Source: a virus. From it: DNA of 64,000 nt. Every line of letters starts with the position of its first letter. Within the stretch, counting starts at the first letter, position 1. This document shows positions 1,207-36,092 of this stretch, in pieces. The notes below the pieces were generated by a model that ran no database searches, was not told the DNA's origin, and worked only from the letters and a program-made list of their open reading frames with translations. The stretch is from IMG/VR virus record IMGVR_UViG_3300005435_000020, positions 36,908 to 100,907 of that record. One strand, given 5' to 3'. The translations under genes were made by a program, and so were the position numbers.

Positions 1207-1572
1207 GTGGCTCAAGGAGTAGGTTTCAGGTTGAATACGTTTCAGGTGGTTGGCAGGCTCGGCGGTGACCCGGAGACGACGACGTTTGCGAGTGGGGACA
1301 CGAAGGTGGCCTTCAATCTCGTGGACAATCGCAAGGTCAAGGGTGTCGAGGAGTCTTCCTGGTTCAAGGTCATCGCCTTCGGCAAGACGGCTGAGATCAT
1401 CGCTTCCCATCTCCACAAGGGGAGCCAGGTCTTCGTCGCGGGGAGGATGCAGCAGCGCAAATACACAACCTCCCAAGGCGAAGAGAAGAAGGTCTACGAG
1501 GTTGTTGCTTCGCAGGTGGAGTTTATCGGACCTCGCGTGAGCAATAACGATGGAGACGAATTGCCGGAGTAG
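1207..1572 (+). CDS. ssb: Single-stranded DNA-binding protein
   Basis: N..VVGRLGGDPE, WFKVIAFGKTAE, KGSQVFVAGRMQQRKY, acidic C-terminal tail DGDELPE. Confidence 0.95.
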   Translation: MAQGVGFRLNTFQVVGRLGGDPETTTFASGDTKVAFNLVDNRKVKGVEESSWFKVIAFGKTAEIIASHLHKGSQVFVAGRMQQRKYTTSQGEEKKVYEVVASQVEFIGPRVSNNDGDELPE

Positions 1573-1650
1573 TCTCCGACACACCGCAGGCTCCCGAGAG
1601 CAGAAGGATTACGCCACAGGGGCCTGTGCTGTTTTGGCACAAAGAAAAGA

Positions 1651-1678
1651 AGGAGGACTGTATTTCAGTCCCCTTTTT
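1651..1678 (+). terminator. Intrinsic terminator-like hairpin after ssb
   Basis: ggaggactg-tattt-cagtcccc followed by TTTTT. Confidence 0.55.
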
Positions 1679-1693
1679 ACTAAGGGAGGGGCG

Positions 1694-2242
1694 ATGAGGA
1701 ACCACGGCGTGAGGCTGCTGTTGGTGGCTCTTATCGGAATATGTTGTTTGGCCCTGCATCCGAATAATGCAGAGGCTGCCCCCTTACAGACGGGGGCCAT
1801 GGAAAACCAACTGAGGAGTGACGTCAACTTCGATAGGGCCAACTACCACGCGGCTCCATTGAAAGAAGACGCCACCCTCGATGCCATAGCCCACGCGAGG
1901 GCCTGGTACATCCTGACGCACCATAGCGTCACGCATTGCAGCACAGACACCCTACAGGAAGGGTGCCATCTCCAGGTGTTGGACCAGTTTTCCTGGCGCA
2001 ACATCCCGATGGATGGGAAGTGGGCAGGTGAGAACCTGGGAGCCGCAGACTATCCTGCATCCGACGTGAGTGACATGAATGGTTATTTCATGGCATCTCC
2101 TCCCCATGAGGAGAACATACTCAATAGCCACTTCACGAAGCTGGGTGTCGGTATCCTCTGCTGCTTCGAGGGCCACATCGGCTCCACGCAGATAGGACCC
2201 AATCAGCCGTTTCCCGTCTACGTCGAAGTGTTCTCAAGTTGA
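1694..2242 (+). CDS. Secreted CAP (SCP/PR-1) domain protein
   Basis: SD gggagg before ATG 1694; signal peptide ending AEA; N..R....PL..D..L..IA..RA, GENLG, MASPPHEENILNSHFTKLGVGI. Confidence 0.85.
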   Translation: MRNHGVRLLLVALIGICCLALHPNNAEAAPLQTGAMENQLRSDVNFDRANYHAAPLKEDATLDAIAHARAWYILTHHSVTHCSTDTLQEGCHLQVLDQFSWRNIPMDGKWAGENLGAADYPASDVSDMNGYFMASPPHEENILNSHFTKLGVGILCCFEGHIGSTQIGPNQPFPVYVEVFSS

Positions 2243-2616
2243 AGCGCCTCCTCGCCATCTTCGGGTTTGTCTTCAGTCTGGCGTTTCCACTCAAAAGCTA
2301 CGCAGGCTCCGGTGATTGCACCGCCTGGGCCTACGAGATGAGGCCAGACCTCTATGGGAGTGTCTGGGGCAATGCCGGTGGCTGGGCCATAGACGCTAGG
2401 ATGTCTGGCAGGAGTGTCGGCTTCCTACCCAAGGTGGGGGCCATCGCCGTCTGGAGACCATGGACTGGGGGAGCTTGGGGACAAGGACACGTCGCATATG
2501 TGACGAGTGTCGGAGCCTACGGCTTCACTGTCACCGAAATGCATTACCCAGTTTACGGCAGAGTAACATCTCGGTGGGTGCCGAGATATTCAGGAGCTAT
2601 GTTCATCTACAAATGA
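2239..2616 (+). CDS. Secreted CHAP-domain peptidoglycan hydrolase
   Basis: Signal peptide ending SYA; GDCTAWAY (Cys), WGNAGGW, PKVGAIAVW, GHVAYV (His), VTEM. Confidence 0.88.
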   Translation: MKRLLAIFGFVFSLAFPLKSYAGSGDCTAWAYEMRPDLYGSVWGNAGGWAIDARMSGRSVGFLPKVGAIAVWRPWTGGAWGQGHVAYVTSVGAYGFTVTEMHYPVYGRVTSRWVPRYSGAMFIYK

Positions 2617-3116
2617 CTGATTACAAGAAGGCTGTTTGGGTACCATCACCCAATTTTGACCAGGGGAGGGAAGGCCACACGATAAACTCCCTAGTCCTTC
2701 ACGGTACCGCTGGCGGTGGGACTGTCCCTTGGTTCTCCCTCCCGCAAAGTTATGTGTCGGCCCACTATGTGGTGGATAAAGACGGCACCGTGACGCAGAT
2801 GGTATTGGAAGCCGACACAGCTTGGCATGCCGGAGAGGTTCCCTACAATAGCCCCTTCTATGGGCAGCCGAATCCCAATTCATGGACCATCGGCATAGAG
2901 TTTGTCAGGGATATCAATAACGCTGAGCCGCTGCCGCAAGTGCAGGTAGACGCTGGCGCTGATCTTGTGAGGGACATCTTTGCGAGGCGAGGCAGGCTCA
3001 TTGTCTTGACCCATGACGAAATTGAGCCAGGCAGAATCTGTCCAGGGCCTGGCTTTCCGGTTGAGACCTTCATGAATATTGACGCCGACACACCAGTACC
3101 GCCGATGGAGAAATAA
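2613..3116 (+). CDS. N-acetylmuramoyl-L-alanine amidase (Amidase_2)
   Basis: ATGA overlap with the CHAP gene; SPNF, LVLHGTA, VSAHYVV, AWHAG, NSWTIGIEF, THDEI..GRICPG. Confidence 0.92.
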   Translation: MTDYKKAVWVPSPNFDQGREGHTINSLVLHGTAGGGTVPWFSLPQSYVSAHYVVDKDGTVTQMVLEADTAWHAGEVPYNSPFYGQPNPNSWTIGIEFVRDINNAEPLPQVQVDAGADLVRDIFARRGRLIVLTHDEIEPGRICPGPGFPVETFMNIDADTPVPPMEK

Positions 3117-3836: not shown

Positions 3837-3947
3837 ATTGAGACGAGTATTATAGTGTTTGAGGAAATAATAAATCTGGTCCGTTTAGATTAGAACCTTC
3901 ACGCCAGCGTCTTGCTGACGTGGTGCCCTACTAGGAAAGGAATCTCA

Positions 3948-4097
3948 TTGTCTCCACTCGCGTGGTTCTTGCTTGTTGTCGCTGGCCTTATCTTGGTCTA
4001 TGTTTTGTATACGGTGCTGCATGTCGCCGTCGCCGTGGCTATCGTAATTGTCCTTTGTGTGATTGGCGTCGCAATCCTTGTGTCGGGAAGATATTAG
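3948..4097 (+). CDS. Small two-TM membrane protein
   Basis: SD aagga plus TTG; two hydrophobic stretches. Confidence 0.65.
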   Translation: MSPLAWFLLVVAGLILVYVLYTVLHVAVAVAIVIVLCVIGVAILVSGRY

Positions 4098-4113: not shown

Positions 4114-4803
4114 TTGATCACTCCCACTGCCGAAGAGTTAGGCAGACTGGCTGCTGAGGCCCTCAACATAGTAGGACACGAGTCTGCTACCTACGACGAC
4201 ATGCCGGAAAAAGACCCATATATGTCGTCTAGAGAAGACATGGAAACACTAGGTGCATATATGTTTGAGGGCTTGAAGACGTATATGGGTGCAACCCCCA
4301 CAGATTTTGTGTTCAGGACTGACGATGTAGCGAAGACCCTTGCGGAAGCCTTCGGCTATCCTTGGGATGAGTTGAGTTCCGAAGATGAGGAAAATCGCTG
4401 GTCCAAGGACTTCTGGCGTATCCTTACCAACAAGGTTCTCCGCGTCATCACCGAGAAGTCTAAGCTAGTCCATTCTCTCGATATCAAGGACCCCAATCGT
4501 CGCCGTCTCGTGGAGCTTATCGACACGGCTAAGGAAATAGCCATCACACGAGGCAACGACTATGGCGACGGAGAGGACACCTTCTCCAATGTCCATTCCG
4601 TCAAGCTGAAGGGCCAGAAACCCTCCGACTACGCCTTGAGTGAGATGTGCTCAAAGCTGACCAGGGTCATCAACGTCTATCGCAAGGGTAATGTGACGGA
4701 GAGTGCAGAAGGTCTCCACAATGATGCCATTGACCTCGCCAACTACGCCATGATATTCCTGGTGATGTATGAGGAAGAGCAGAGACTGAAGGAAGGTGAA
4801 TAA
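4114..4803 (+). CDS. Protein with C-terminal nucleotide-modification-associated (Nmad1/DUF1599-like, all-alpha NTP-PPase-like) domain
   Basis: RGNDYGDGEDTFSNV...KLTRV...DAIDLANYAMI pattern. Confidence 0.65.
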   Translation: MITPTAEELGRLAAEALNIVGHESATYDDMPEKDPYMSSREDMETLGAYMFEGLKTYMGATPTDFVFRTDDVAKTLAEAFGYPWDELSSEDEENRWSKDFWRILTNKVLRVITEKSKLVHSLDIKDPNRRRLVELIDTAKEIAITRGNDYGDGEDTFSNVHSVKLKGQKPSDYALSEMCSKLTRVINVYRKGNVTESAEGLHNDAIDLANYAMIFLVMYEEEQRLKEGE

Positions 4804-5245
4804 GCCCACCATTTATTTGGCGGGGCCACTCACTGGCATCTCTTTCGATGAGGCGAAGCTTTGGAGGAGGATGGTCCAGGAGTGGATGTCCCCCGACATA
4901 GATTGCCTATGCCCCCTCCGCAGCCAGAGCTACATCGTAGGTGAGAAGGTGCTTGCCAACACCTACGACGAGGACCCCTTCTGCACAGGGAAGTCCATCA
5001 CACTTCTGGACCACCACGACGTCAAGCGGTGTGACCTCCTCCTTGTCAACTATCTCGACGCAAAGAAAGTGAGCATCGGCACAGTCATGGAGCAGGCGTG
5101 GGCCTATGCCTATGGACATCCCGTGGTGGTTGTGATGGAAGAAAATAACCCACACTTCCATTGTATGGTGGAGGAAACCTCAACGATGGTGTTTGATGAT
5201 CTCATGGATGCCTGCTTCGCCGTCAAGACGATACTACTGCCTTAG
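4796..5245 (+). CDS. Nucleoside 2-deoxyribosyltransferase-like protein
   Basis: IYLAGP, D...VKRCDLLLV, SIGTVMEQAWAYAYGHPVVVV. Confidence 0.85.
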   Translation: MNKPTIYLAGPLTGISFDEAKLWRRMVQEWMSPDIDCLCPLRSQSYIVGEKVLANTYDEDPFCTGKSITLLDHHDVKRCDLLLVNYLDAKKVSIGTVMEQAWAYAYGHPVVVVMEENNPHFHCMVEETSTMVFDDLMDACFAVKTILLP

Positions 5246-10705: not shown

Positions 10706-12367
10706 ATGGTCATGATCATCGGATTACTCAGGCGCTGGTCCACACCGAATCAGACGGGAAACTTCCGGCAGGAAGCACACTTCGAGGTGATGGAGAAAGT
10801 TGTCGCCGCGAAGGGATGGGAGTTTGCCTACTACGATGAGGGGCAAGTCTCCGGCAGGGACATGAAGAAGAGGCCCAACCTCCAGAGGCTGCTTGATGAC
10901 ATCCGTCACAAGAAGGTGCAGGGCATCGGTGCCCTGGACATCGACAGGATCACCCGCGACGAATACCTCGTGGACCCTGGCATCATCCTCTCCGCCTGCG
11001 CCGACGCTGGTGCCATCATCGTCACGAGGGACAGGGTGTATGACCCTCGGAAGAAAAACGATAGGTTCATCTTCCAGGTCCAGAGTGCCATCGCGGGGAA
11101 TGAAGTCTCCACGATACGCGAGAGGATGTATGAGGGGCTTTCACGCAAGATGATGGAGTCCCCGGTGCATCGAGGCAGGACACCGTGGGGCTATATGCGT
11201 GTGCTGGATGGCGTAGACGCGAAAGGCAATGCCATCAGGCATCTTGAGAAAGACCCTGAGCTTACTCCGGTGGTAATGAGGCTCTTCGAGTTAGCCTCCA
11301 CGTCACTCTCGGTGCAGGGTGTGTCGGCACAACTCAACGGCGAAGGCCTACTGAAACGACGCTGGAAAGACACGGAGGGTGGGCCTCGTTTCTGGACACA
11401 CGCAGACGTGGCGAGTATCGTCTTCAATCCTATTTATTCGGGTAGGCACCACGTCTTGAAGCACCCGACGAAGCCCATCTGGGAAAGCGACGTCATACCC
11501 GAAGGCTTGAGGGACAAGGTTCATTACATAGAAGACTGGGCATTCCTGGACCCTGAGGATCACGATGCCCTGATGAGGCGATTCGAGAAGACGAAGGCAC
11601 ACGGGACACGGGGCAGGCGCAACGACAATGCGCTGCTTGGCATCCTCTCGTGTCTCTACTGCGGCGGCAAGATGTATTTCTCGAAGCGGAAGCCGGGGAG
11701 TAAACTCAACGACTTCCATTTCTGCTTCAACCACATGGCGTGTAAGACTAGCTGCCGTGGGCAGACGATATCGGACCACCTCGTGAAAGCAGCCGTCTTC
11801 GACTTCATCCAGGGAAGGCTCTCGAAGTCCTTGGTGGAGGAGGTAGCCAATGAGCACCAGGACATCTTCGGCTCCGGCGCTGAAGAGGAGCTACGGAGCC
11901 TGCGCCTCCAGTTGGCGACGCTAGAAGAGAAGAGGATGCGCTTCAAGCAGATGGCGAGGGCTGCGACGTCGGAAGCACTGGAGCAGACCTACACGGAAAA
12001 CGCAGCGGAGCTACTTGACGAGATTGCTAGTGTGAGGGAGACCTTGCGACAGAAGGAGACGTTTGCCAAGAATAAGGACAGGATGCTCAGCGTTGTCGAG
12101 AATGTGGTCAGGTTCCGAGACGTCATGGAACACGCGGATAGCGCCACGCAGCATGGGCTCCTCACCCACGTGTTCCGATGGGTGAAGGTGGAAGCCTACG
12201 GTGCGATGCAGCATCGGCAAGTCAGGGTAGCAGCCTGGCACCTGATGGGGGAGGAGGAGCCCCAGACGTCTTATCTCACTGACGACGCCATATCCCCATA
12301 TAACGTCGCCATTTGGATGATGCCACCAGGAGTGTGGCGTGATGTTGTCGGTATGTTCACGGCTTGA
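10706..12367 (+). CDS. Large serine recombinase (phage integrase)
   Basis: Resolvase domain (RWST..Q, DEGQVSG...RPNLQRLL, DRITRD), recombinase domain (PWGY, NPIYSG), Zn ribbon (LLGILSCLYCGGKM), coiled coil; SD ggagg and a -10 TATACT at 10686. Confidence 0.95.
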   Translation: MVMIIGLLRRWSTPNQTGNFRQEAHFEVMEKVVAAKGWEFAYYDEGQVSGRDMKKRPNLQRLLDDIRHKKVQGIGALDIDRITRDEYLVDPGIILSACADAGAIIVTRDRVYDPRKKNDRFIFQVQSAIAGNEVSTIRERMYEGLSRKMMESPVHRGRTPWGYMRVLDGVDAKGNAIRHLEKDPELTPVVMRLFELASTSLSVQGVSAQLNGEGLLKRRWKDTEGGPRFWTHADVASIVFNPIYSGRHHVLKHPTKPIWESDVIPEGLRDKVHYIEDWAFLDPEDHDALMRRFEKTKAHGTRGRRNDNALLGILSCLYCGGKMYFSKRKPGSKLNDFHFCFNHMACKTSCRGQTISDHLVKAAVFDFIQGRLSKSLVEEVANEHQDIFGSGAEEELRSLRLQLATLEEKRMRFKQMARAATSEALEQTYTENAAELLDEIASVRETLRQKETFAKNKDRMLSVVENVVRFRDVMEHADSATQHGLLTHVFRWVKVEAYGAMQHRQVRVAAWHLMGEEEPQTSYLTDDAISPYNVAIWMMPPGVWRDVVGMFTA

Positions 12368-12555
12368 AAGGGAAGCCCACGATGATCTTACTTGCTTTGA
12401 TGATCTTCGCTTTGGTAGTCTTGGTGGTAGGAGTGCCCTCGGCATTCCTCCTAGTACTTTCTATCGCTATCATAAGGATCAGTTTGAAGTTATGGTGGCT
12501 ATGGCTGATCATCGCATTGGTCTGCGTCGCGGCTGCGAATGGAGGTTCCGGTTGA
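12364..12555 (+). CDS. Small membrane protein
   Basis: Hydrophobic 63 aa, TTGA coupling to the integrase. Confidence 0.7.
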   Translation: MKGKPTMILLALMIFALVVLVVGVPSAFLLVLSIAIIRISLKLWWLWLIIALVCVAAANGGSG

Positions 12556-13031
12556 GATACTTGCTTGGTTTCTTGGTTGCATTCCTGCTGGTGGGCTGTG
12601 CGGATTCGGCACAGACGGTTGTATCATCTCCCACGGCAGTAGCCCCTGCGGCTCCTAGTGCCACACCTGGGGCTGCGGCGGCTACTGTCCCTCTCGGAAG
12701 TGACTTGGAGCTTGCCAAAGTCGCCGCCGTTGCCGACATCAAAGGCGACGAGAAAACGGTGCAACAGGTCATGCAGGCCAACCCACAGGCGGTGGCACTA
12801 TTTGTCAAGACGGATAGGCAGAGCTACAACCTCGATATGTACACGGTGGTGGGTGCTGCGGTGGAACAGAAGCCATCGTCCCCCAACCAAGATGGCACTG
12901 TCATGTATTATTTGGATGTCCCCGTGAAGACCCCGCAAGGGACATCACAGCGTTTTAGTATACAAGTCAGGGTCAATCCCGTGGCACACAGAGTGACTTC
13001 CATTGATCCGATGGGCATAGGACTTGACTAG
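12552..13031 (+). CDS. Lipoprotein (candidate superinfection exclusion or lysogenic conversion)
   Basis: SD ggagg plus TTG 12552; MRYLLGFLVAFLLVG-C lipobox; Pro/Ala linker. Confidence 0.75.
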   Translation: MRYLLGFLVAFLLVGCADSAQTVVSSPTAVAPAAPSATPGAAAATVPLGSDLELAKVAAVADIKGDEKTVQQVMQANPQAVALFVKTDRQSYNLDMYTVVGAAVEQKPSSPNQDGTVMYYLDVPVKTPQGTSQRFSIQVRVNPVAHRVTSIDPMGIGLD

Positions 13032-13036
13032 ACAAC

Positions 13037-13078
13037 AAAAATAAGCCCCCTACCCGATGAAGGTAGGGGGCTTATTTT
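13037..13078. terminator. Bidirectional terminator where the two arms converge
   Basis: aaaaataagccccctacc-N7-ggtagggggcttatttt. Confidence 0.93.
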
Positions 13079-13658
13079 ATTGCTTCAGGAATGACGTGAT
13101 GGGGATTTGCGGGGGAGGCTCCGGCGAGGGGATAGTCACCGTCGTCGTCGTGTTGGCGGGGAATGTCGGCGCTGCCGCATTGAGTGGGGGATTGGAAAGC
13201 GAGGGGTCCACCTTTGGTGTGTAGGATTCCGGCACCTTCATGGACACCGTGACGGGGATATCGACAAGCTTCATGGCGACGTCTACAGACTGCACCAAGT
13301 CTCCAGGCTTCGTCGGTGCCTCCACAGTGGCTGCGGTGCCACTTGTCTTGTCCACCGTCTGCTTCCCAAGGAAGGCTGGGATCACTTGCGTGGCACCGTG
13401 GTAGCCGAGTACTGCGCCGCCTCCAATCAAGAGGCCACCATTGTAGAGGAGCAGGAGGATGGCCTGGCTGGACTCCGGCATCCCCGAGAACATTCCCCAC
13501 GCGACGATACCGAGGGCTATGCTCACAAGGCGGATCACGGAGTCGTGGATGCTATTGTCTGGTGTGATCTTTAGCTCAATGAAGTTCTTGATGATCTGTG
13601 TGGCGATGGCAACCATCACCGCCAGGATGAATGGCGTGAGGGCATCAGCGATGGGCAT
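13077..13658 (-). CDS. Holin-like membrane protein with Pro/Thr-rich C-terminal tail
   Basis: Three TM segments, ATQIIKN motif, last gene of the late arm. Confidence 0.65.
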   Translation of the reverse strand: MPIADALTPFILAVMVAIATQIIKNFIELKITPDNSIHDSVIRLVSIALGIVAWGMFSGMPESSQAILLLLYNGGLLIGGGAVLGYHGATQVIPAFLGKQTVDKTSGTAATVEAPTKPGDLVQSVDVAMKLVDIPVTVSMKVPESYTPKVDPSLSNPPLNAAAPTFPANTTTTVTIPSPEPPPQIPITSFLKQ

Positions 13659-14118
13659 GGTAGACTGTCTCTCCTTGACTTTGTAAGACGATGACTGCCG
13701 GGGCTTCTACCCCAGGCTTGAGAAATCTCTGAATCAACCATAGTGGGGCCGGGAGATGGTGTATACCCCCTATGCCAGTATGGTGAAATTTACAAAGCGG
13801 CATCAAATTTTCTTCACTTTCACACCACATGAAGAAGGCTTCTTCGTCGGGTATGTGGAATTGGGGATACAACTCAGCAAACCTACGCCAGTCTGCGTCG
13901 CCTATCAGCGCATACTCCACGAAGTAGTGATGAAGCTCAATGGACTCCTTTGAGCAATCCTTGTTGTCGATGTAGCATTTGAGCTTTCCTTCACGACGCA
14001 TCCTCTCTCGCGTCTCATTGAAGATGTGGTAGTAGGGATCACCCTCTCTTGGAATGTGTGGAGGGTAATGCTCAAGGATTTCGATGTGCTCATGCTCAAT
14101 ATGCTCTTGCTCTGACAT
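13645..14118 (-). CDS. HNH-like (His-Me finger) protein
   Basis: C....DC...IELHH...NLMPLCKFHH....GIH. Confidence 0.65.
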   Translation of the reverse strand: MSEQEHIEHEHIEILEHYPPHIPREGDPYYHIFNETRERMRREGKLKCYIDNKDCSKESIELHHYFVEYALIGDADWRRFAELYPQFHIPDEEAFFMWCESEENLMPLCKFHHTGIGGIHHLPAPLWLIQRFLKPGVEAPAVIVLQSQGETVYHAHR

Positions 14119-14131
14119 GGGAGTGACCAAT

Positions 14132-14156
14132 AAAAAAGGACACCCGAAGGTGTCCT
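14132..14156 (-). terminator. Intrinsic terminator after the repressor
   Basis: Minus strand aggacacc-TTCG-ggtgtcct followed by a T-run. Confidence 0.88.
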
Positions 14157-14175
14157 GTGGTGTGAAGGAAAAGGG

Positions 14176-14886
14176 TTAGCTCCTGTGGAGCATCTCGGCT
14201 AAGGCTGCGACGGTTTCCTTCTCGGTGCCGAAGCTTCGGTACATGCTCTCCACGTAGAAAAGTGGCGTCATTATCGTGGTCTTCCCGAAATGGGAGATGA
14301 CGCCTTGGCCCCTCTTCGCAACTAGCGCCAGGCCCCTACCTTCTTTGATCACGACGGGGATGCCATCGGCAAGCTCCTGGTTCTCGTAGGGCAGGCAGCA
14401 GAGGACATCGCCTTGCGAAAACTGGAAGGGGAAGGGGCCTTCCTCCAGTACAGCAATACCGCGTTTCTCACTCGACACACCGAAGGTGGGGTAGGGCACC
14501 CTCGTTGCTTGGGAAACCCTCGCCACTTCGCCACTCTTGAGCAACTCGTAGCTGATGATCAGCGTATTATTATGCGCTGCGACTAGCGACTCCTGCACAC
14601 CTTGTTGGAGTGCTTCGAGGAGAGGGATGATGGGCTCACGAAAGGGGATCACGTCTCTCGTGGGGAGTGGCGGCGGCTCATCTCCGTGGAGGAGATAGGT
14701 GGTGGATACCTCCAACACTTTCGCTATTTTCTCCAGCGTCTCCGTCGTCGGCTGCGTCTTCCCACTGAGCATCAGGGAGAGTGTCGATGCCCTGATGCCG
14801 GAGGCCAGCGCAAGTTTATTGTCAAGTGTCCAGCCACGCTTCAGCATGGTCTGCTTCAGCCTCTCGGGAAACTCCACCACACACAA
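14176..14886 (-). CDS. XRE-family (CI-like) repressor with degenerate S24-like C-terminal domain
   Basis: RLKQTMLKRGWT...LALASGIRASTLSLMLSGKTQPTTETLEKIAKVLEVSTTYLL; C-terminal QGDVLCC...DGIPVVI...LVAKR. Confidence 0.88.
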   Translation of the reverse strand: MCVVEFPERLKQTMLKRGWTLDNKLALASGIRASTLSLMLSGKTQPTTETLEKIAKVLEVSTTYLLHGDEPPPLPTRDVIPFREPIIPLLEALQQGVQESLVAAHNNTLIISYELLKSGEVARVSQATRVPYPTFGVSSEKRGIAVLEEGPFPFQFSQGDVLCCLPYENQELADGIPVVIKEGRGLALVAKRGQGVISHFGKTTIMTPLFYVESMYRSFGTEKETVAALAEMLHRS

Positions 14887-14915
14887 TCCTCTTCAACACA
14901 CCAAAACACTGCTAC

Positions 14916-14944
14916 AGTATATCAGGCGGGTGGTAGTTTCACAA
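14916..14944 (-). promoter_or_regulatory. Repressor promoter TTGTGA-N17-TATACT (extended TG)
   Basis: Minus-strand boxes at 14944-14939 and 14921-14916, overlapping the end of the response regulator gene. Confidence 0.7.
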
Positions 14945-15356
14945 CGGAAAGCCAGAAGTTTGAAATGGCCGATACCACCGCCATGAATTGCTCAAGGTCA
15001 AATGGCTTCGTCACGTAGCAGTTTGCGTGGAGGTTATAGCTCTGCAATACATCCTTGTCCTCCTGCGACGTCGTGAGCACCACCACGGGAATACGCATCA
15101 GGCACTCGTCTTGTTTGATGTCTTGCAGGAGTTCCCTGCCGTCTTTGCGTGGCATGTTGAGGTCAAGGAGGATCAAGTCTGGCCGAGGGGAGTCCTGGTA
15201 GGGTGCTTCGCGTTTCAGGAACCTGAGTGCCTCCACGCCATCGGTGCAGACGTTGATGTGGTTGATGACCTTGGAGTCCCTCAGCAATTCCTGCGTGAGA
15301 TCAACGTCTGCCTCGCTGTCGTCTACGATGAGTATTTCAATGGGTACTGCCACCAC
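14922..15356 (-). CDS. Single-domain response regulator, Rcp1/phytochrome-RR type
   Basis: ILIVDD, PDLILLDLNMP (phospho-Asp), VVVLTTS, ANCYVTKP, C-terminal NFWLSVVKLP typical of Rcp1. Confidence 0.95.
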   Translation of the reverse strand: MVAVPIEILIVDDSEADVDLTQELLRDSKVINHINVCTDGVEALRFLKREAPYQDSPRPDLILLDLNMPRKDGRELLQDIKQDECLMRIPVVVLTTSQEDKDVLQSYNLHANCYVTKPFDLEQFMAVVSAISNFWLSVVKLPPA

Positions 15357-15363
15357 CTTGCCG

Positions 15364-17196
15364 CTACTTGGAGTATTTCGGGAGGGTGAAGGAGAAGACT
15401 GAACCTTTGTCGGGGACGGAGGTTGCCCAGATGGTGCCACCATGTTGTTCTATGACTTTCTTGCAGATGGAAAGACCTATGCCGGTGCCTTCGTATTCCT
15501 CCTTGCGATGGAGTTTCTGGAATACGACGAATATCTTGTCAGAGTATTGCATATCGAAGCCAATACCGTTATCCGATATATCAATTCGCCACATTGAATG
15601 TTCATCAGTACAGCGTATCAGGATATTCGGGGGGACACCAGGCTTCCGAAACTTTATCGAGTTGGCGAGGAGGTTCTGGAAGACTTGGGTCAGCCAGATG
15701 GGATCACCCGAGACGGAGGGAAGCTGGTCCCTCTCTATCTCCGCGTGGCTCTCGTTGATGGCTGCTTGTAGGCTGTCTAGTGCCGAATCCACACAGGCAT
15801 TGAGATTGGTCTGCACCATCTCCTTCGTCTTCGACGTGACCCTCGAATAGAGGAGCAAGTCTTGGATGAGGTTCCGCATCCTCTGGGAACCGGACACTGC
15901 GTAGCCTATGTACTTCTTCGCCTTGTCGTCAAGCTGCGCCGTATACTGTTTGTCGAGGAGTTGGAGATATGACGTCACCATACGCAGGGGCTCTTGCAAG
16001 TCGTGGGAGGCGATGTAGGTGAACCTCTCCATCTCGCCGTTGCTCTTGATCAGCGCCTCCTCGTATCGCTTCCTCTCCGATACATCGCGTATGGTTGCCG
16101 TGTACATCTTGCCGTCACTCTCGGATGCCCACACGGAGATGAGAAGCTCCAGTGGGAACCTGCTGCCATCTTTCTTGACACCCTGCAACTCCATGGTGGT
16201 GCCGATGACGTGTGAGGGCCACCCCTCCGCGAGGCGTCGGATGCCGTGTTCATGCTTCGGATAGAGGTCAGGGGGGATGATCTTCTCTAGCGTGTGGCCC
16301 ACCATCTCCTCCGACGTGTAGCCAAAGATGTTCTCGGCGGCGTGGTTCCAGAAGGTCACGATGCCATCCGGTGTGATGGACACGAAGGCGTCGGTGGAGG
16401 ATTGCGTCACATTCCAGTACCACTCCTTGACCTTCTCCACTTCCTTGCGCTGCTGAAGTGTCTGCGCCTCTGCCTTCCTCGTGGCATCCATGAAGAATCG
16501 CATCCCAAGGAAATTGCCTATCACCAGGAGCACACCGAAGATGCTTCCATAGAAGGTGATGCGGAGGCTATTGCGTGTGCCCTCTAGCACCGCGTCGTAT
16601 TTCTGCTGGATGGCCTTGGACTGCCTGTCGAGGATGTTGCCCAGGAGGGTGCTGGCATCGACGCCTTGATAGAGACCTTCATCTGTCATGACGAGGGCAA
16701 CGGCTTCATCGTGGGAACCTGATTGCTCAAGCTCAATGGTCCTGAGCATCTCTGATCTCTTCTGGGTGATGAGCCTCTTCGCCTCCGAGAAGTCCCTCGC
16801 ATCGTCGGTGCTGTCTTGTGTGGTGGCCTGCGTCGCGTCTATGGCAGTGTTGATGACCTTATTCGCGTCATTGTAGGACATGAGATAGAGGGGGTCCCCG
16901 GTGAGCAGGTAGCCACGCTGCCCACTCTCCATCTGCTTCAGGTCCAACAGTGTTTGGTAGACGTTGTAGTATTCTAGCCTGGCGCTGCGATAATCTTGCA
17001 GGACATAATAGACCCTGGCGACGATGACGACGGAGTAGATATACGCCGCCACGAGGATGGCGAGTGTGCCCAGGGAACAGAAGGTCAAGAAACGCTGGGA
17101 GGTCATGAGATGAAATGGAGCAGGATGCCACACAATGTTATGATGCCGCCACATACCAGGGACCAGTTTCCGAAGAGGTGAAATCTTTGGAGCCAC
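15364..17196 (-). CDS. Sensor histidine kinase TM-CHASE3-TM-PAS-HisKA-HATPase (Cph1/BphP-type transmitter)
   Basis: ESGQRGYLLTGD (CHASE3); WNHAAENIFGY..EEMVG (PAS); ASHDLQEPLR (H box); QNLLANSIKF, DNGIG, FQKLH, GTGIGLSICK. Confidence 0.96.
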   Translation of the reverse strand: MAPKISPLRKLVPGMWRHHNIVWHPAPFHLMTSQRFLTFCSLGTLAILVAAYIYSVVIVARVYYVLQDYRSARLEYYNVYQTLLDLKQMESGQRGYLLTGDPLYLMSYNDANKVINTAIDATQATTQDSTDDARDFSEAKRLITQKRSEMLRTIELEQSGSHDEAVALVMTDEGLYQGVDASTLLGNILDRQSKAIQQKYDAVLEGTRNSLRITFYGSIFGVLLVIGNFLGMRFFMDATRKAEAQTLQQRKEVEKVKEWYWNVTQSSTDAFVSITPDGIVTFWNHAAENIFGYTSEEMVGHTLEKIIPPDLYPKHEHGIRRLAEGWPSHVIGTTMELQGVKKDGSRFPLELLISVWASESDGKMYTATIRDVSERKRYEEALIKSNGEMERFTYIASHDLQEPLRMVTSYLQLLDKQYTAQLDDKAKKYIGYAVSGSQRMRNLIQDLLLYSRVTSKTKEMVQTNLNACVDSALDSLQAAINESHAEIERDQLPSVSGDPIWLTQVFQNLLANSIKFRKPGVPPNILIRCTDEHSMWRIDISDNGIGFDMQYSDKIFVVFQKLHRKEEYEGTGIGLSICKKVIEQHGGTIWATSVPDKGSVFSFTLPKYSK

Positions 17197-17223
17197 AGGA
17201 GCTTTCTTATTTCCTTACGAATT

Positions 17224-18078
17224 TTATGATGGGGTTGTTGTGGTAGTTGTCGTCGTGGTTGTTGTTGCTGGAGATGGTAAGGTGTGAGCACCTTCCTCAC
17301 TACTTCTATCAATGACGGAGGAGATGTCCTGCACAAGCCTGACTAACTGCTGCCTATTGAATGGCACAGGGAACAGGAAAACCTTTTCCGGTAGCTCCTT
17401 GTCCAGGGACAGATAGCTCCTCGATGACGGGTCACCAAACTCTAATGCGAGTATGAATGCGATTTTGTTGTATCCTGGCATCCTCCTGACGGTGTTCACG
17501 AATTCGTAGCTGTCGGATTTGAAGGACAGGACATCCACGATGATCACACCCAGCGTGGAGGAAGTCATCGTGGAGATGAGGTTCAGTGCATCGTTGCGAC
17601 TCTTTGCGACGACGACGGAGAAGCCGTGGTTGATGAGGAGTTCCTGCGTAGCCTCCCGTATCCTCCCTTCGTTGCCGACGACAAGCACCGTGATGCTTGA
17701 GGGGAGGCTCAAATCGCCTTCGTTGCCGATGAGGAAACCAAACGACTTGGCGGAATTCTTGACGGTGAGGATGAACCTCTCCTGCCTGTCCAGAGACGTT
17801 TGCATGTCCCTGATACGCTGGTCTTGCGTGTAGGCAGCGGCTTTCATGGCTGTCATCTGGCCATCCATCTGGTCAAGCTTCGTCTTCTGCGTGGCGGCGT
17901 CTTCCCTGAGTGTCTTCATGTCGTTGGTCAAGGAGTCGTTGAGGGTCTTCATCTGGCCTATGATCTCGGATTTGATGTCCCGGTGGTTGCGTCGCAGCAG
18001 CACATAGGAAGTCACCATGGCCCCGAAGCCGCCGAGGGCAGAGCCTATCTGGACTAAGGGGATGTCAGTGATGAGCAT
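17224..18078 (-). CDS. Single-TM coiled-coil protein fused to an atypical receiver domain
   Basis: N-terminal TM, heptad region, then TVLVVGNE...GFSVVVAKSRNDAL...VIIVDV...IAFIL...FPVPFNRQQLVRLV; poly-Thr tail. Confidence 0.75.
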   Translation of the reverse strand: MLITDIPLVQIGSALGGFGAMVTSYVLLRRNHRDIKSEIIGQMKTLNDSLTNDMKTLREDAATQKTKLDQMDGQMTAMKAAAYTQDQRIRDMQTSLDRQERFILTVKNSAKSFGFLIGNEGDLSLPSSITVLVVGNEGRIREATQELLINHGFSVVVAKSRNDALNLISTMTSSTLGVIIVDVLSFKSDSYEFVNTVRRMPGYNKIAFILALEFGDPSSRSYLSLDKELPEKVFLFPVPFNRQQLVRLVQDISSVIDRSSEEGAHTLPSPATTTTTTTTTTTPS

Positions 18079-18082
18079 TGCG

Positions 18083-19222
18083 TTACTTCAGGTAGAGTTC
18101 CACGGCACCAGCATACCACTGATCACCACGGTTATAACATTCAATAATACGATTAGTGAGCCTGACGCGATACCGTATCTCGCCATTCACAACCTCCTGG
18201 TACTCCCCGGTGAGGCAGGGTCCGGGGTTCTCCATATCCGCCGTGGGGTCGCCAGCGGCAACCAGCGCCAAGTACTTCTCGCGGAGGGGCTTCAGGCCAT
18301 ACTTATACAGTGCCGAATCAGCACTGGGAGGGTATCCATACATTCCATAGTAGGCAATAATAGAATCGGTAGACTGTGGCTGCGTGGGCACTGGGGTATC
18401 TCCTACTGTGACGTAATCGGCTATTGTGTCCAACACAGGATCAGTTAGCCGGAAGCTGTTCCAGTCTGTGTCGTTGCCGACTTGGTAGATGGTGGCACCT
18501 AGCTCCATAGCATCCGTCAGCATCGCGTCACCCAAGGCGATGAGTTGCGACGCATATACTTCGTCGGGGATGCCGTGAGCCCTATAGCCGTTAGTGTTTG
18601 TGTAGGAGGTGTCCCCTTGACTATTGGGGATCACGCCGAAGTCGATGCCAGCCTCCGAGTAGATGCGTGGCTTTGTGCCATAGCGTGGGTCAAGCTGGAC
18701 ATACTTGCGTGGCCTGAGTGCAAGCCAGTCAGACGACGTGAGGACACCGGGGGCACCGTAGGCGTGGTAGCTCCACGCATCTGCCTGCAAGACGCAGGGT
18801 GCCAGGATATCCAACACACGTCGTATGTCGTCGTCGCTGCCAGCGGGGGTGCCGACAGCCAGGGATAAATCGGAGACCTTAAGGCCAGCGCCTTGGAGGC
18901 GCTTCGTCACTTCGAGGTTGAATTTATTGTAGAAGACGGGATCACCGAGGGCTTCATTGTAAAGCTCCCAGTAGTCCACGATGCCTTTGACGGTTTGGCT
19001 CTCCGTCAGGATGGCCTGCGCCATCTCCTCTTCGTTGCCGTCTTGATTGATCATCCTTCGGCAGACGATGATGGCCTGCGGGTTGTCCTTACGTATCTCC
19101 ACCAGCGATTCTTCGTCGCTATTGAGGAATTTCAGGATGCCCCAGGAGCCGTTGCCTTTGTTGATGGCGTTTCTGGCGAGTGGCGAATAGTTATTGGCGT
19201 GTAGGCCAAGCTTCTTCTTCAA
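18083..19222 (-). CDS. Putative endolysin, glycoside hydrolase TIM barrel plus C-terminal binding domain
   Basis: LGLH, YWELYNEA (acid/base), WSYHAYG, IYSEAG (nucleophile); directly follows the tail genes. Confidence 0.7.
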   Translation of the reverse strand: MKKKLGLHANNYSPLARNAINKGNGSWGILKFLNSDEESLVEIRKDNPQAIIVCRRMINQDGNEEEMAQAILTESQTVKGIVDYWELYNEALGDPVFYNKFNLEVTKRLQGAGLKVSDLSLAVGTPAGSDDDIRRVLDILAPCVLQADAWSYHAYGAPGVLTSSDWLALRPRKYVQLDPRYGTKPRIYSEAGIDFGVIPNSQGDTSYTNTNGYRAHGIPDEVYASQLIALGDAMLTDAMELGATIYQVGNDTDWNSFRLTDPVLDTIADYVTVGDTPVPTQPQSTDSIIAYYGMYGYPPSADSALYKYGLKPLREKYLALVAAGDPTADMENPGPCLTGEYQEVVNGEIRYRVRLTNRIIECYNRGDQWYAGAVELYLK

Positions 19223-34029: not shown

Positions 34030-34824
34030 TTAGCCGAATAACTCGGGACGAATAAAATATTCCTTCACACCCACCAACGGCTTGAGGATGGCAGGCAAGT
34101 CGTAGGGTGATGTCGTCTTGTCGAAGAGGGGACCAAACTCGCCGGAGGCAAGGGCCTGCTCCGATTCCGCCGCGAGGTCTTGGTACATCTGCTTGGCGGG
34201 ATAGAGCTTTGCGTGGTTGATCCTCTTTCTGTGGAGGTTCACCGGGAATACATAGCCGACGTGGCAGAGTGGCTTCGGAAACGACGTATTGACCATCGTG
34301 GGTCCTTTTCCTTTCCAGAAGCGCCAGCCGTCGCCGTCGCTGGACCAGCCTGCATTGGTCTTGACGAGCATTTCTGCCTGCGTGAAGCACTGCGTATTAT
34401 ATTCATCCAGCGTCTGGAAGTTATTGGCTAGGTGTAGGTAAGGAATAGAAATAGCACCCATATCGAGAGAACAGTAATGCGGAATCAGCACAGCACTCTC
34501 GGGGTGCCACACTTCGTCTGCGTGGGCACACAAGGCGTAGTCGCCGGTACACAATTCAAGGCCCCTATCCTGCGCAATACCAGACACCCTCCCTTCGCCG
34601 GAGCCATACACCTTGGTAGTGTCGGGCCACCCACCATATTCTATCCTGACCTTCTCGGGATATTTGTGGCGAAGCATCTCCCACCAATATTCGGTGTTAT
34701 CTTGGGAGCCGCATTCCAGCACCACATATTCATCCACGACGTCGATGAGACTCAACGCCGTTTCTATGTAAGGGTACCCGAGAGACAGCAAATTGCGGGA
34801 TATCGTGAAGGCAGATATCTTCAC
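34030..34824 (-). CDS. Glycosyltransferase family 2 (GT-A)
   Basis: KISAFTISRN...VDEYVVLECGSQDNT...CTGDYALCAHADEV; GTGA coupling. Confidence 0.88.
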   Translation of the reverse strand: MKISAFTISRNLLSLGYPYIETALSLIDVVDEYVVLECGSQDNTEYWWEMLRHKYPEKVRIEYGGWPDTTKVYGSGEGRVSGIAQDRGLELCTGDYALCAHADEVWHPESAVLIPHYCSLDMGAISIPYLHLANNFQTLDEYNTQCFTQAEMLVKTNAGWSSDGDGWRFWKGKGPTMVNTSFPKPLCHVGYVFPVNLHRKRINHAKLYPAKQMYQDLAAESEQALASGEFGPLFDKTTSPYDLPAILKPLVGVKEYFIRPELFG

Positions 34825-36092
34825 GAGAGCTTCCTCATGACACCCAACAACTCTTTGACCATCACTTCCCGAGAAAACTTGCGCCTGACGTAGGAAGCGG
34901 CTTTCTTGCCTTTCGCCTTGGCTTCGTCTCGGTTGTCGTAGATGTGGCGCATGAGGTGGCTTACTTGCTCCATGTCGCAGTTCCACCAAAGAAGGGGTTT
35001 ATAGTCTCTCATGCCGAGAGGAGACTCCACCAAGGGCTTGTGCGGGTCCAGCCCCACGGTGTAGCAATATTTGTCGTCTGCCCACGCGGAGCAACCGGAG
35101 TGTGTCGGCGCAATCACCGGCAATCCCGTCGCCATGGCCTGGAGAGGCGGCATGAAAAATCCCTCACCGTGTGAGAGGAAGCAAGCAGCGTCTGCTTCGT
35201 GGGCGAGTTTCGCCAGTTGCCAGGTCTCCCACTCTTCGTCAATGATGGTGACGCGGCTATCCGCCACGGCGGGGATGCCTGCCCTGCCCACGCCGAAATC
35301 GTGGTTGCGTGTCTTCATGATCAATCTGACGTCTGGGTATTTAGAGACGGGAAATGCCTTCCAAAATGCGATAAGCGTTTCGTTGGGGCACTTGCGGCTG
35401 GACATCCGTGACCAGGAGACGAAGGTGAAGGTATCCTTCTCTTCCCTCTCCTTGTAGGCATATTCCGACACGTCAATTCCGATGGGCACCGCATACATGG
35501 GCTGAGTGCACCCGCTGCTCCTGAATATCTCTATCTGCGACTCGGCGGGGACGATGATGATATCAGCCGTCTTCAGTGGCTCATCCCAGGTGCTGGGTAC
35601 TTGCGTGGACTCGTACATCGTGGAGAGGACACGATGCTCTGTGGGAAGCTCATCTAAGGCGTTGGGGTAGCCGAAGGCGATACCCCAGCGTGTCGGGTAC
35701 TTCGGCTCCCTCTCGATAAGCTCCACGATGCCTGGGTACATCTTCGTGAGGGATTCCCGCATACTCGGGTGGACGCCATTCACTGAGGAAATGCGGACCC
35801 CGTGTTGCTCCAGGCCCAGGAGGCTGTGGATGGAATAGGTGCCGTAGCCTTCCGTGGGATGCACCGGGATGGTTGCGGTGAGGTAGAGGGTCTTCCCTTC
35901 TTTGTGCTTGCAGTCTTCCCAGGCGATGGACCAGTGCTTCGTGTCCCTGGCGAGTTTGATGCAGAGGATGGGGTCCACTTTGTTGGTGGACTCACCCGGC
36001 TCCAGCCTGACTTGGGCATCGGAGAGGTACTCGGTCCTGTTGCCGACATTCTTGAGGATGGGCAATGCGTGGCAATCCTTCTCACTGGACAA
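34821..36092 (-). CDS. Glycosyltransferase family 4-like (GT-B)
   Basis: GYG, MYEST, VPIGID, RK, ADAACFLSHGEGFFMPPLQAMATGLPVIA. Confidence 0.92.
   Translation of the reverse strand: MSSEKDCHALPILKNVGNRTEYLSDAQVRLEPGESTNKVDPILCIKLARDTKHWSIAWEDCKHKEGKTLYLTATIPVHPTEGYGTYSIHSLLGLEQHGVRISSVNGVHPSMRESLTKMYPGIVELIEREPKYPTRWGIAFGYPNALDELPTEHRVLSTMYESTQVPSTWDEPLKTADIIIVPAESQIEIFRSSGCTQPMYAVPIGIDVSEYAYKEREEKDTFTFVSWSRMSSRKCPNETLIAFWKAFPVSKYPDVRLIMKTRNHDFGVGRAGIPAVADSRVTIIDEEWETWQLAKLAHEADAACFLSHGEGFFMPPLQAMATGLPVIAPTHSGCSAWADDKYCYTVGLDPHKPLVESPLGMRDYKPLLWWNCDMEQVSHLMRHIYDNRDEAKAKGKKAASYVRRKFSREVMVKELLGVMRKLS

Follow-up and report, generated by a model that had tools for sequence, protein, structure and literature searches.

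FrzS of Myxococcus xanthus joins a receiver fold without the catalytic residues to a long coiled coil (PMC1974792). The protein is soluble, its receiver is N-terminal, and it is without the phospho-Asp. Pseudo-receivers of this kind (as defined in PMC12632262) are expected to act by protein contact and localization, not by phosphotransfer. Stand-alone receivers are a second point of comparison. In Cph1/Rcp1-type systems, a phytochrome sensor is paired with a receiver that has no output domain, and to our knowledge most Rcp1-type receivers have no known target. Phage lysis proteins are a third. The T4 holin T with RI/RIII, the N4 pinholin gp63 (PMC12642591), LysZ of actinophages (PMC13123898) and the Rz-type i-spanins combine one membrane segment with a long helical or regulatory domain, and they lie at the end of the late genes. 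None of them has a CheY-like fold; the N4 “Receiver domain” is a name only. Finally, receivers of Alteromonas phages have been filed in the literature as auxiliary metabolic genes (CheY-like/PhoB), with their neighbours left unassigned (PMC7289586, PMC10579305, PMC8228385).

We analyzed P0001, a phage gene for a predicted membrane anchor, a coiled coil and a degenerate receiver in one chain. It lies in a window of 64,000 nt (the whole stretch of DNA that was analyzed), which makes up the right-hand end of an IMG/VR virus record of 100,907 bp (CheckV completeness 66%). The recognized genes (TerL, portal, protease and major head protein) are those of a tailed phage. The tape measure (2318 aa) and tail proteins are on the minus strand and run towards low coordinates. 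This late arm ends, in order, with tail proteins, a 136-aa protein, a 379-aa protein, P0001, a 610-aa kinase, a receiver, an XRE-type regulator, an HNH nuclease and a 193-aa membrane protein. It converges with the plus arm, whose last gene is a serine recombinase, near 13,050 at a long hairpin terminator (13078-13038, 18-bp stem) that follows the 193-aa gene. The IMG/VR search returned no close kin for four marker proteins of the phage (glycosidase, kinase, tail protein and terminase).

The record has further features of its own. A glycosyltransferase gene (34821-36092, minus) lies between the capsid and neck genes, and among the early-arm genes are an RNA ligase and a nucleoside 2-deoxyribosyltransferase (73-1152 and 4796-5245, plus). 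Outside the window (L101, G000:C1 ~11,900-19,000), we observed a tandem array of ten or more paralogous ORFs (~115-160 aa) with a common Cys/His-containing N-terminal pattern and an “IFP.AD”-like motif.

P0001 occupies 17224..18078 on the minus strand and is read from 18078 to 17224 as an intact frame of 284 aa. The ORF list, the translation and full-length homologues gave the layout as membrane anchor, coiled coil, linker, pseudo-receiver and poly-Thr tail. A reading of the sequence alone (hereafter the sequence-only reading) had proposed most of these parts, and they largely held. The N-terminal membrane helix it described was found by hydropathy at residues ~8-28 (17995..18057, minus) as a weakly hydrophobic, Gly-rich segment with GxxxG spacing. 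Its Kyte-Doolittle mean is just 1.28, so membrane insertion is a prediction; the relatives score higher (1.6-2.3). The flanking charges are −1 on the N side (one Asp) and +2 on the C side (RRNHRDIK), which predicts an N-out/C-in orientation. From the short N-terminus, the anchor and the positive cluster after it, the coil and the receiver fold are predicted to be cytoplasmic.

Heptads follow at residues 31-101 (17776..17988, minus), a stretch of ~70 residues compared with the roughly 80 first estimated. Hydrophobic residues fill 14 of its 20 a/d positions, a count reached by 0 of 2000 shuffles, and AF2 modeled a single helix across residues 9-109. This coil should hold at least two pseudo-receiver domains at the membrane, with the oligomeric state as a prediction. 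An Atlas search with the N-terminal half returned only sub-threshold viral “hypothetical” clusters and long-helix look-alikes. The linker at residues 102-128 (17695..17775, minus) has the pattern F..(N/T)V..S...(L/F/I)G......G, is conserved in an alignment across both subfamilies described below, and had low pLDDT in AF2. The C-terminal Thr run (residues 272-282; 17233..17265, minus) uses all four Thr codons, as had been noted, and is eleven residues long, not ten. It is absent from the relatives.

The C-terminal half was recognized as a receiver by several methods. The domain spans residues 129-256 (17311..17694, minus). Pfam Response_reg (PF00072) matched P0001 at E = 0.003 and 18.2 bits, below the 30.2-bit gathering cut-off (18.8 bits in a six-frame search). 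Among the weak NCBIfam matches, 20 of 22 were response-regulator or hybrid-kinase models aligned over residues 121-262, and a phmmer search of the PDB matched CpxR and other receivers. Modeling by AF2 in single-sequence mode gave a clean (beta-alpha)5 fold at 130-255 (E130-134, H139-150, E154-158, H161-170, E176-182, H189-198, E207-213, H217-223, E233-238, H242-255). Nearly all PDB matches of this model in Foldseek were receivers (TM by target ~0.8). The receiver fold, which the sequence-only reading had set as a point to be checked, is thus borne out by the model and its structural neighbours.

We mapped the active site using the phage’s own canonical stand-alone receiver as the reference. 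The substitutions were exactly those first described: the acidic pair DD is replaced by G-N, the Thr by Leu (“ILALE”) and the Lys by Val (“FPVPF”). [quoted passage not shown] Because D182 is the sole catalytic residue retained, P0001 is a pseudo-receiver and not an aspartate-less one, by the definition that we took from PMC12632262. We also considered a recent duplication of the phage receiver and rejected it, since BLASTP between the two was not significant (E 0.09) and aligned only an alpha1 stretch with “TQELL”.

P0001 resembles FrzS in carrying a receiver fold stripped of catalytic residues on a long coiled coil, and we expect it likewise to act by contact and localization. In contrast to FrzS, the order is anchor, coil, receiver, and the Asp is kept. 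P0001 is also phage-borne and lies beside a complete kinase/receiver pair; the kinship considered is that of the receiver superfamily.

The retained D182 leaves some room for inefficient phosphorylation (PMC12632262). One reading is that P0001 is a weak but real phospho-acceptor that uses this Asp and a Glu just after the lost pair, and serves as a membrane-bound phosphate sink or competitor of the stand-alone receiver. Every family member has an Asp at the D182 position, the lost pair is followed by acidic residues (G-N-E, G-A-E-E, G-A-D-D), and phosphotransfer can survive substitutions of DD, T or K (PMC12632262). However, four of the five catalytic residues are gone together, including both Mg ligands and the Lys, and a retained Asp can serve structure or dimerization, as in GlnR and RamR (PMC12632262). 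We consider a phosphate sink improbable.

P0001 belongs to a very small family. A word-indexed search returned only the self-match, and an exhaustive phmmer search of 1.84 billion representatives found five further 50%-identity clusters. Two of these matched over the full length: P0002 (33% identity, E 2.5e-31) and P0003 (25% identity, E 4.9e-23). P0056, P0059 and P0067 were remoter matches, equal to P0001 in length and layout. The members are therefore P0001, P0002/P0079, P0003, P0056, P0059 and P0067. All six share a short N-terminus, a Gly/Ala-rich anchor, a more positive C flank, a coil, the linker and a receiver, and in all six the charge flanks give N-out/C-in polarity and hence a cytoplasmic receiver.

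The family falls into a canonical and a degenerate subfamily. P0056, P0059 and P0067 have DD, D and T/S; the Lys is present in P0059 and P0067, and P0056 has Glu at that position. P0001, P0002 and P0003 have in common the degenerate pattern of G-[NA], D, no T and no K. Comparison of the two subfamilies by hhalign gave 99.1% probability (E 1.5e-18), linker included, and the canonical-subfamily HMM matched P0003 over positions 3-242. The degenerate members also carry two conserved motifs that set them apart: SSR(S), following beta4, and FP(F/Y)RQ, at the KPF position of canonical receivers. They single out what may be a new functional surface of the alpha4-beta5-alpha5 face.

If P0001 were a canonical membrane-tethered receiver in decay, with no function left, this would account for the lost active-site residues and for the low-complexity Thr tail that is unique to the P0001 copy. 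Against decay, the reading frame is unbroken, coupling to the neighbouring genes is tight, and P0002 and P0003 share the substitutions and the extra conserved motifs at just 25-33% identity. A degenerate state that is shared and conserved at this distance argues for selection and function, and we judge a remnant very improbable. These comparisons support P0001 as a member of a real conserved family and not a chance ORF.

All family sequences came from metagenomes, and none from NCBI genomes. Pattern scans of IMG/VR with both subfamily alignments detected no family member, two metagenome scans returned generic receivers only, and a GTDB pattern scan returned an OmpR-type regulator only. Searches of GenBank phages by tblastn either had no match or led to a bacterial OmpR/kinase contig with a wrong phage label. 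The family HMM, run over 401 Chloroflexota genomes, matched receiver parts only and no family member; the best match (L091) was an N-terminal receiver adjoining an integrase, in another architecture.

P0001 is packed against signalling genes. The next gene, 27 nt downstream, encodes a 610-aa sensor histidine kinase (15364..17196, minus) with the Pfam order TM, CHASE3, TM, PAS, HisKA, HATPase_c, in which hydrophobic segments flank CHASE3 on both sides. It is followed by a stand-alone receiver of 144-173 aa (14922..15443, minus; Pfam E 3.5e-23) in which alignment showed DD, D, T and K to be present. The likely true start of this receiver is a GTG at 15356, 7 nt past the kinase stop. The contig contains one HATPase_c/kinase, one full receiver and one sub-threshold receiver, which is P0001. 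We observed no predicted terminator between the 379-aa gene and the receiver; the next on the strand are at 14156-14137 and 13078-13038, by a consensus scan that may not fit the host. This packing with the phage’s only kinase and only intact receiver argues for the functional integration with signalling genes that had first been read from the fusion. The tie is well supported in this phage, the one in which linkage of the family to a kinase gene was seen.

Since the stand-alone receiver lacks an output domain, it needs a protein partner. We tentatively favour, at a little under an even chance, a reading in which P0001 is a membrane-tethered coiled-coil pseudo-receiver (an atypical response regulator) and the third component of a phage module with the CHASE3-PAS kinase and the stand-alone receiver, acting by protein contact. 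The pseudo-receiver would not be phosphorylated in the normal way. It would dock the phosphorylated stand-alone receiver through its alpha4-beta5-alpha5 face, or bind the DHp domain of the kinase. An outside signal read by CHASE3 would in this manner be turned into a change at the membrane late in infection. The most plausible output, at weaker strength, would be control over when a late envelope event, for instance lysis, takes place. Compared with Cph1/Rcp1, the phage likewise pairs a kinase with a receiver lacking an output domain, but its sensor is CHASE3 plus PAS, and a third gene, for the membrane-tethered pseudo-receiver, lies ahead.

The host is likely a member of the Chloroflexota, because the cytoplasmic part of the kinase is 40-45% identical to Chloroflexota kinases and the Atlas neighbours of the 379-aa protein are mostly from this phylum. 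A kinase match at E ≤ 1e-60 was present in 58 of 401 sampled Chloroflexota genomes, the unpublished G273 among them. Such identity is also what is expected of a captured host gene, and the module adjoins an XRE/CI-type HTH regulator (14176..14886, minus) near the serine recombinase, a location where temperate phages often carry accessory genes. P0001 could on these grounds be a factor for lysogenic conversion or host takeover unrelated to lysis: a membrane decoy for the host's kinases or receivers, or a scaffold that lets the phage kinase act on host physiology or, through the XRE regulator, on a lysis-lysogeny switch. However, the family is missing from the 401 Chloroflexota genomes searched. 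The module has no promoter-like site before it and is apparently read from the late arm, whereas a separate promoter-like site (14944-14916) and terminator (14156-14137) serve the XRE gene, a weak point because the calls come from the consensus scan. We regard a host-directed role as distinctly unlikely.

The sequence-only reading had placed P0001 4 nt after an endolysin stop. The spacing was correct: the ATG lies 4 nt past the TAA of the upstream 379-aa gene (18083..19222, minus). The endolysin identity was not supported: none of the peptidoglycan hydrolase families matched the 379-aa protein, which resembles a TIM-barrel glycosidase of clan GH-A and carries a beta domain at its C-terminus. 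It had no Pfam, PHROG, NCBIfam or PDB sequence match, even at E 10, and its single known homologue is P0101 (52% identity). Both proteins keep WELYNE and, ~100 residues on, SEAG, and we read this pair of conserved Glu motifs as typical of retaining glycosidases in clan GH-A. Its Atlas neighbours are Chloroflexota cellulase, GH42 and GH10-type clusters, and Foldseek gave a weak match to PslG on a poor AF2 model (pLDDT 42). We know of no peptidoglycan hydrolase family in clan GH-A. Its candidate functions are a depolymerase on the virion, a lysin acting on some other wall polymer, or a different activity altogether.

Better-supported lysis candidates lie elsewhere. CAP-domain, CHAP and Amidase_2 genes stand in a row after ssb in the early arm (1550-3116, plus). 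The CHAP and Amidase_2 genes (2239-3116, plus) are ~14 kb from P0001 on the other arm, and Amidase_2 was matched at E 6.5e-24, as were numerous endolysin and amidase families of PHROGs. The amidase is followed, ~800 nt downstream, by a 61-aa ORF (3912-4097, plus) that hydropathy showed to be very hydrophobic. The last late-arm gene (13077..13658, minus) encodes the 193-aa protein, with three hydrophobic segments and a Pro/Thr-rich tail by hydropathy; it had no family match and is holin-like by layout only.

The earlier assignment of P0001 to a holin/antiholin position followed from calling the upstream gene an endolysin. It was not supported: the neighbour is GH-A-like, Amidase_2 and CHAP are elsewhere, and searches of Pfam, PHROGs and NCBIfam matched P0001 to no family of holins or antiholins. 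P0001 could still be a lysis effector or regulator itself (holin-, pinholin- or antiholin-like), in which the Gly-rich helix oligomerizes or blocks a holin and the pseudo-receiver gates it according to the kinase and receiver. The gene's position at the far end of the late arm, past the tail genes and a hydrolase, is consistent with this, as is a weakly hydrophobic Gly-rich anchor with GxxxG spacing followed by a coil. Single-TM holins with a soluble regulatory part have precedents in T4 T and N4 gp63 (PMC12642591), and cultured phages carry unfused anchor-coil and receiver pairs beside lysins or spanins. Set against these points are the missing family match, a size of 284 aa with a globular domain that is unlike known holins, the location of Amidase_2 and CHAP, and the other holin candidates, the 193-aa and 61-aa proteins. 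We consider a direct holin-like role rather unlikely.

T4 T, N4 gp63, LysZ and Rz-type spanins resemble P0001 in layout and late position. They had no sequence match to it except for the coil: the only lysis-category PHROG matched was 739 (Rz-like spanin; E 3e-5), over 58 coil residues (42-99). We rejected an Rz-like i-spanin. The charge flanks predict C-in, the opposite of a spanin, whose coil is outside the cell; a spanin topology would put the receiver fold outside the cell, which makes no sense. No o-spanin was found, and the minus strand contained no lipoprotein ORF embedded in or adjoining P0001.

The unfused pairs occur in cultured Alteromonas phages. In all four examined (V22, A5, R9Y3 and XX1924), a gene for a membrane-anchored helical protein lies directly before an intact receiver gene (pair loci L103 5370-6578, L105 2131-3386, L106 2127-3447 and L107 1742-2457). 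The myovirus V22 has the order tail fibre, chaperone, papain-like amidase, gp29, gp30, gp31. Its gp29 (125 aa) starts with a Gly/Ala/Ser-rich segment, continues with DKKKGDK and then a helical region; gp30 is an intact 149-aa receiver whose five catalytic residues are all present, and gp31 has matches among the Rz-like spanin PHROGs. The schitovirus A5 carries a homologous block (gp10/gp11) with an annotated endolysin three genes past the receiver gene. In the siphovirus R9Y3, a 121-aa N-terminally anchored helical protein and a receiver (gp13/gp12) are followed by a lysozyme. The XX1924 pair follows a tail fibre gene.

Three of the four pairs have the same parts as P0001 in the same order, namely a short N-terminus, a Gly/Ala-rich anchor, a positive cluster, a ~90-aa helical region and a receiver; XX1924 differs in having its coiled-coil protein tail-anchored, at the C-terminus and not the N-terminus. 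Anchor hydropathy is close (1.26 in V22 gp29, 1.28 in P0001). The pairs lie after tail genes, and three of them have a hydrolase or Rz-like gene next to them. With equal parts in one chain, P0001 behaves like a fused version of the pairs. The differences are that the pairs are two genes and P0001 one, that the V22 receiver keeps five catalytic residues and P0001 one, and that the stretches examined around the pairs contain no kinase gene, whereas P0001 adjoins one. The hosts of the Alteromonas phages are diderm Gammaproteobacteria.

The likeness is one of architecture only. Comparison of the N-terminal half by hhalign gave 0.7% probability, and V22 gp30 ranked 96th of 105 against the family profile; specific sequence kinship with V22 gp29/gp30 was therefore rejected. 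The sequence-only reading had proposed that P0001 physically links a phosphorelay to the lysis machinery. We infer such a link as a possibility that only the unfused Alteromonas pairs help, and a role for P0001 in timing host lysis is plausible.

The fusion may act as a Rosetta stone. Membrane-anchored helix and receiver pairs beside lysins in unrelated phages could be one device, a lysis-timing regulator controlled by a phospho-signal. In phages with no kinase the input would come from a host kinase; here it would come from the phage’s own CHASE3 kinase through a stand-alone receiver docked on the pseudo-receiver. We put this forward as speculative and, on balance, unlikely. If true, lysis control would gain a new class, with the phage timing the bursting of the cell from an extracellular cue.

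Pseudo-receivers are common yet poorly understood, and Rcp1-type stand-alone receivers mostly lack a known target. One operon with a sensor kinase, a stand-alone receiver and a predicted membrane-tethered pseudo-receiver offers a concrete, testable set of partners. The fixed pairing near lysis genes, together with the fused form, suggests that the receivers of marine phages are parts of an undescribed membrane signalling device and not “auxiliary metabolic genes”. If this device sets the timing of lysis, it would give phages a new route to read their environment.
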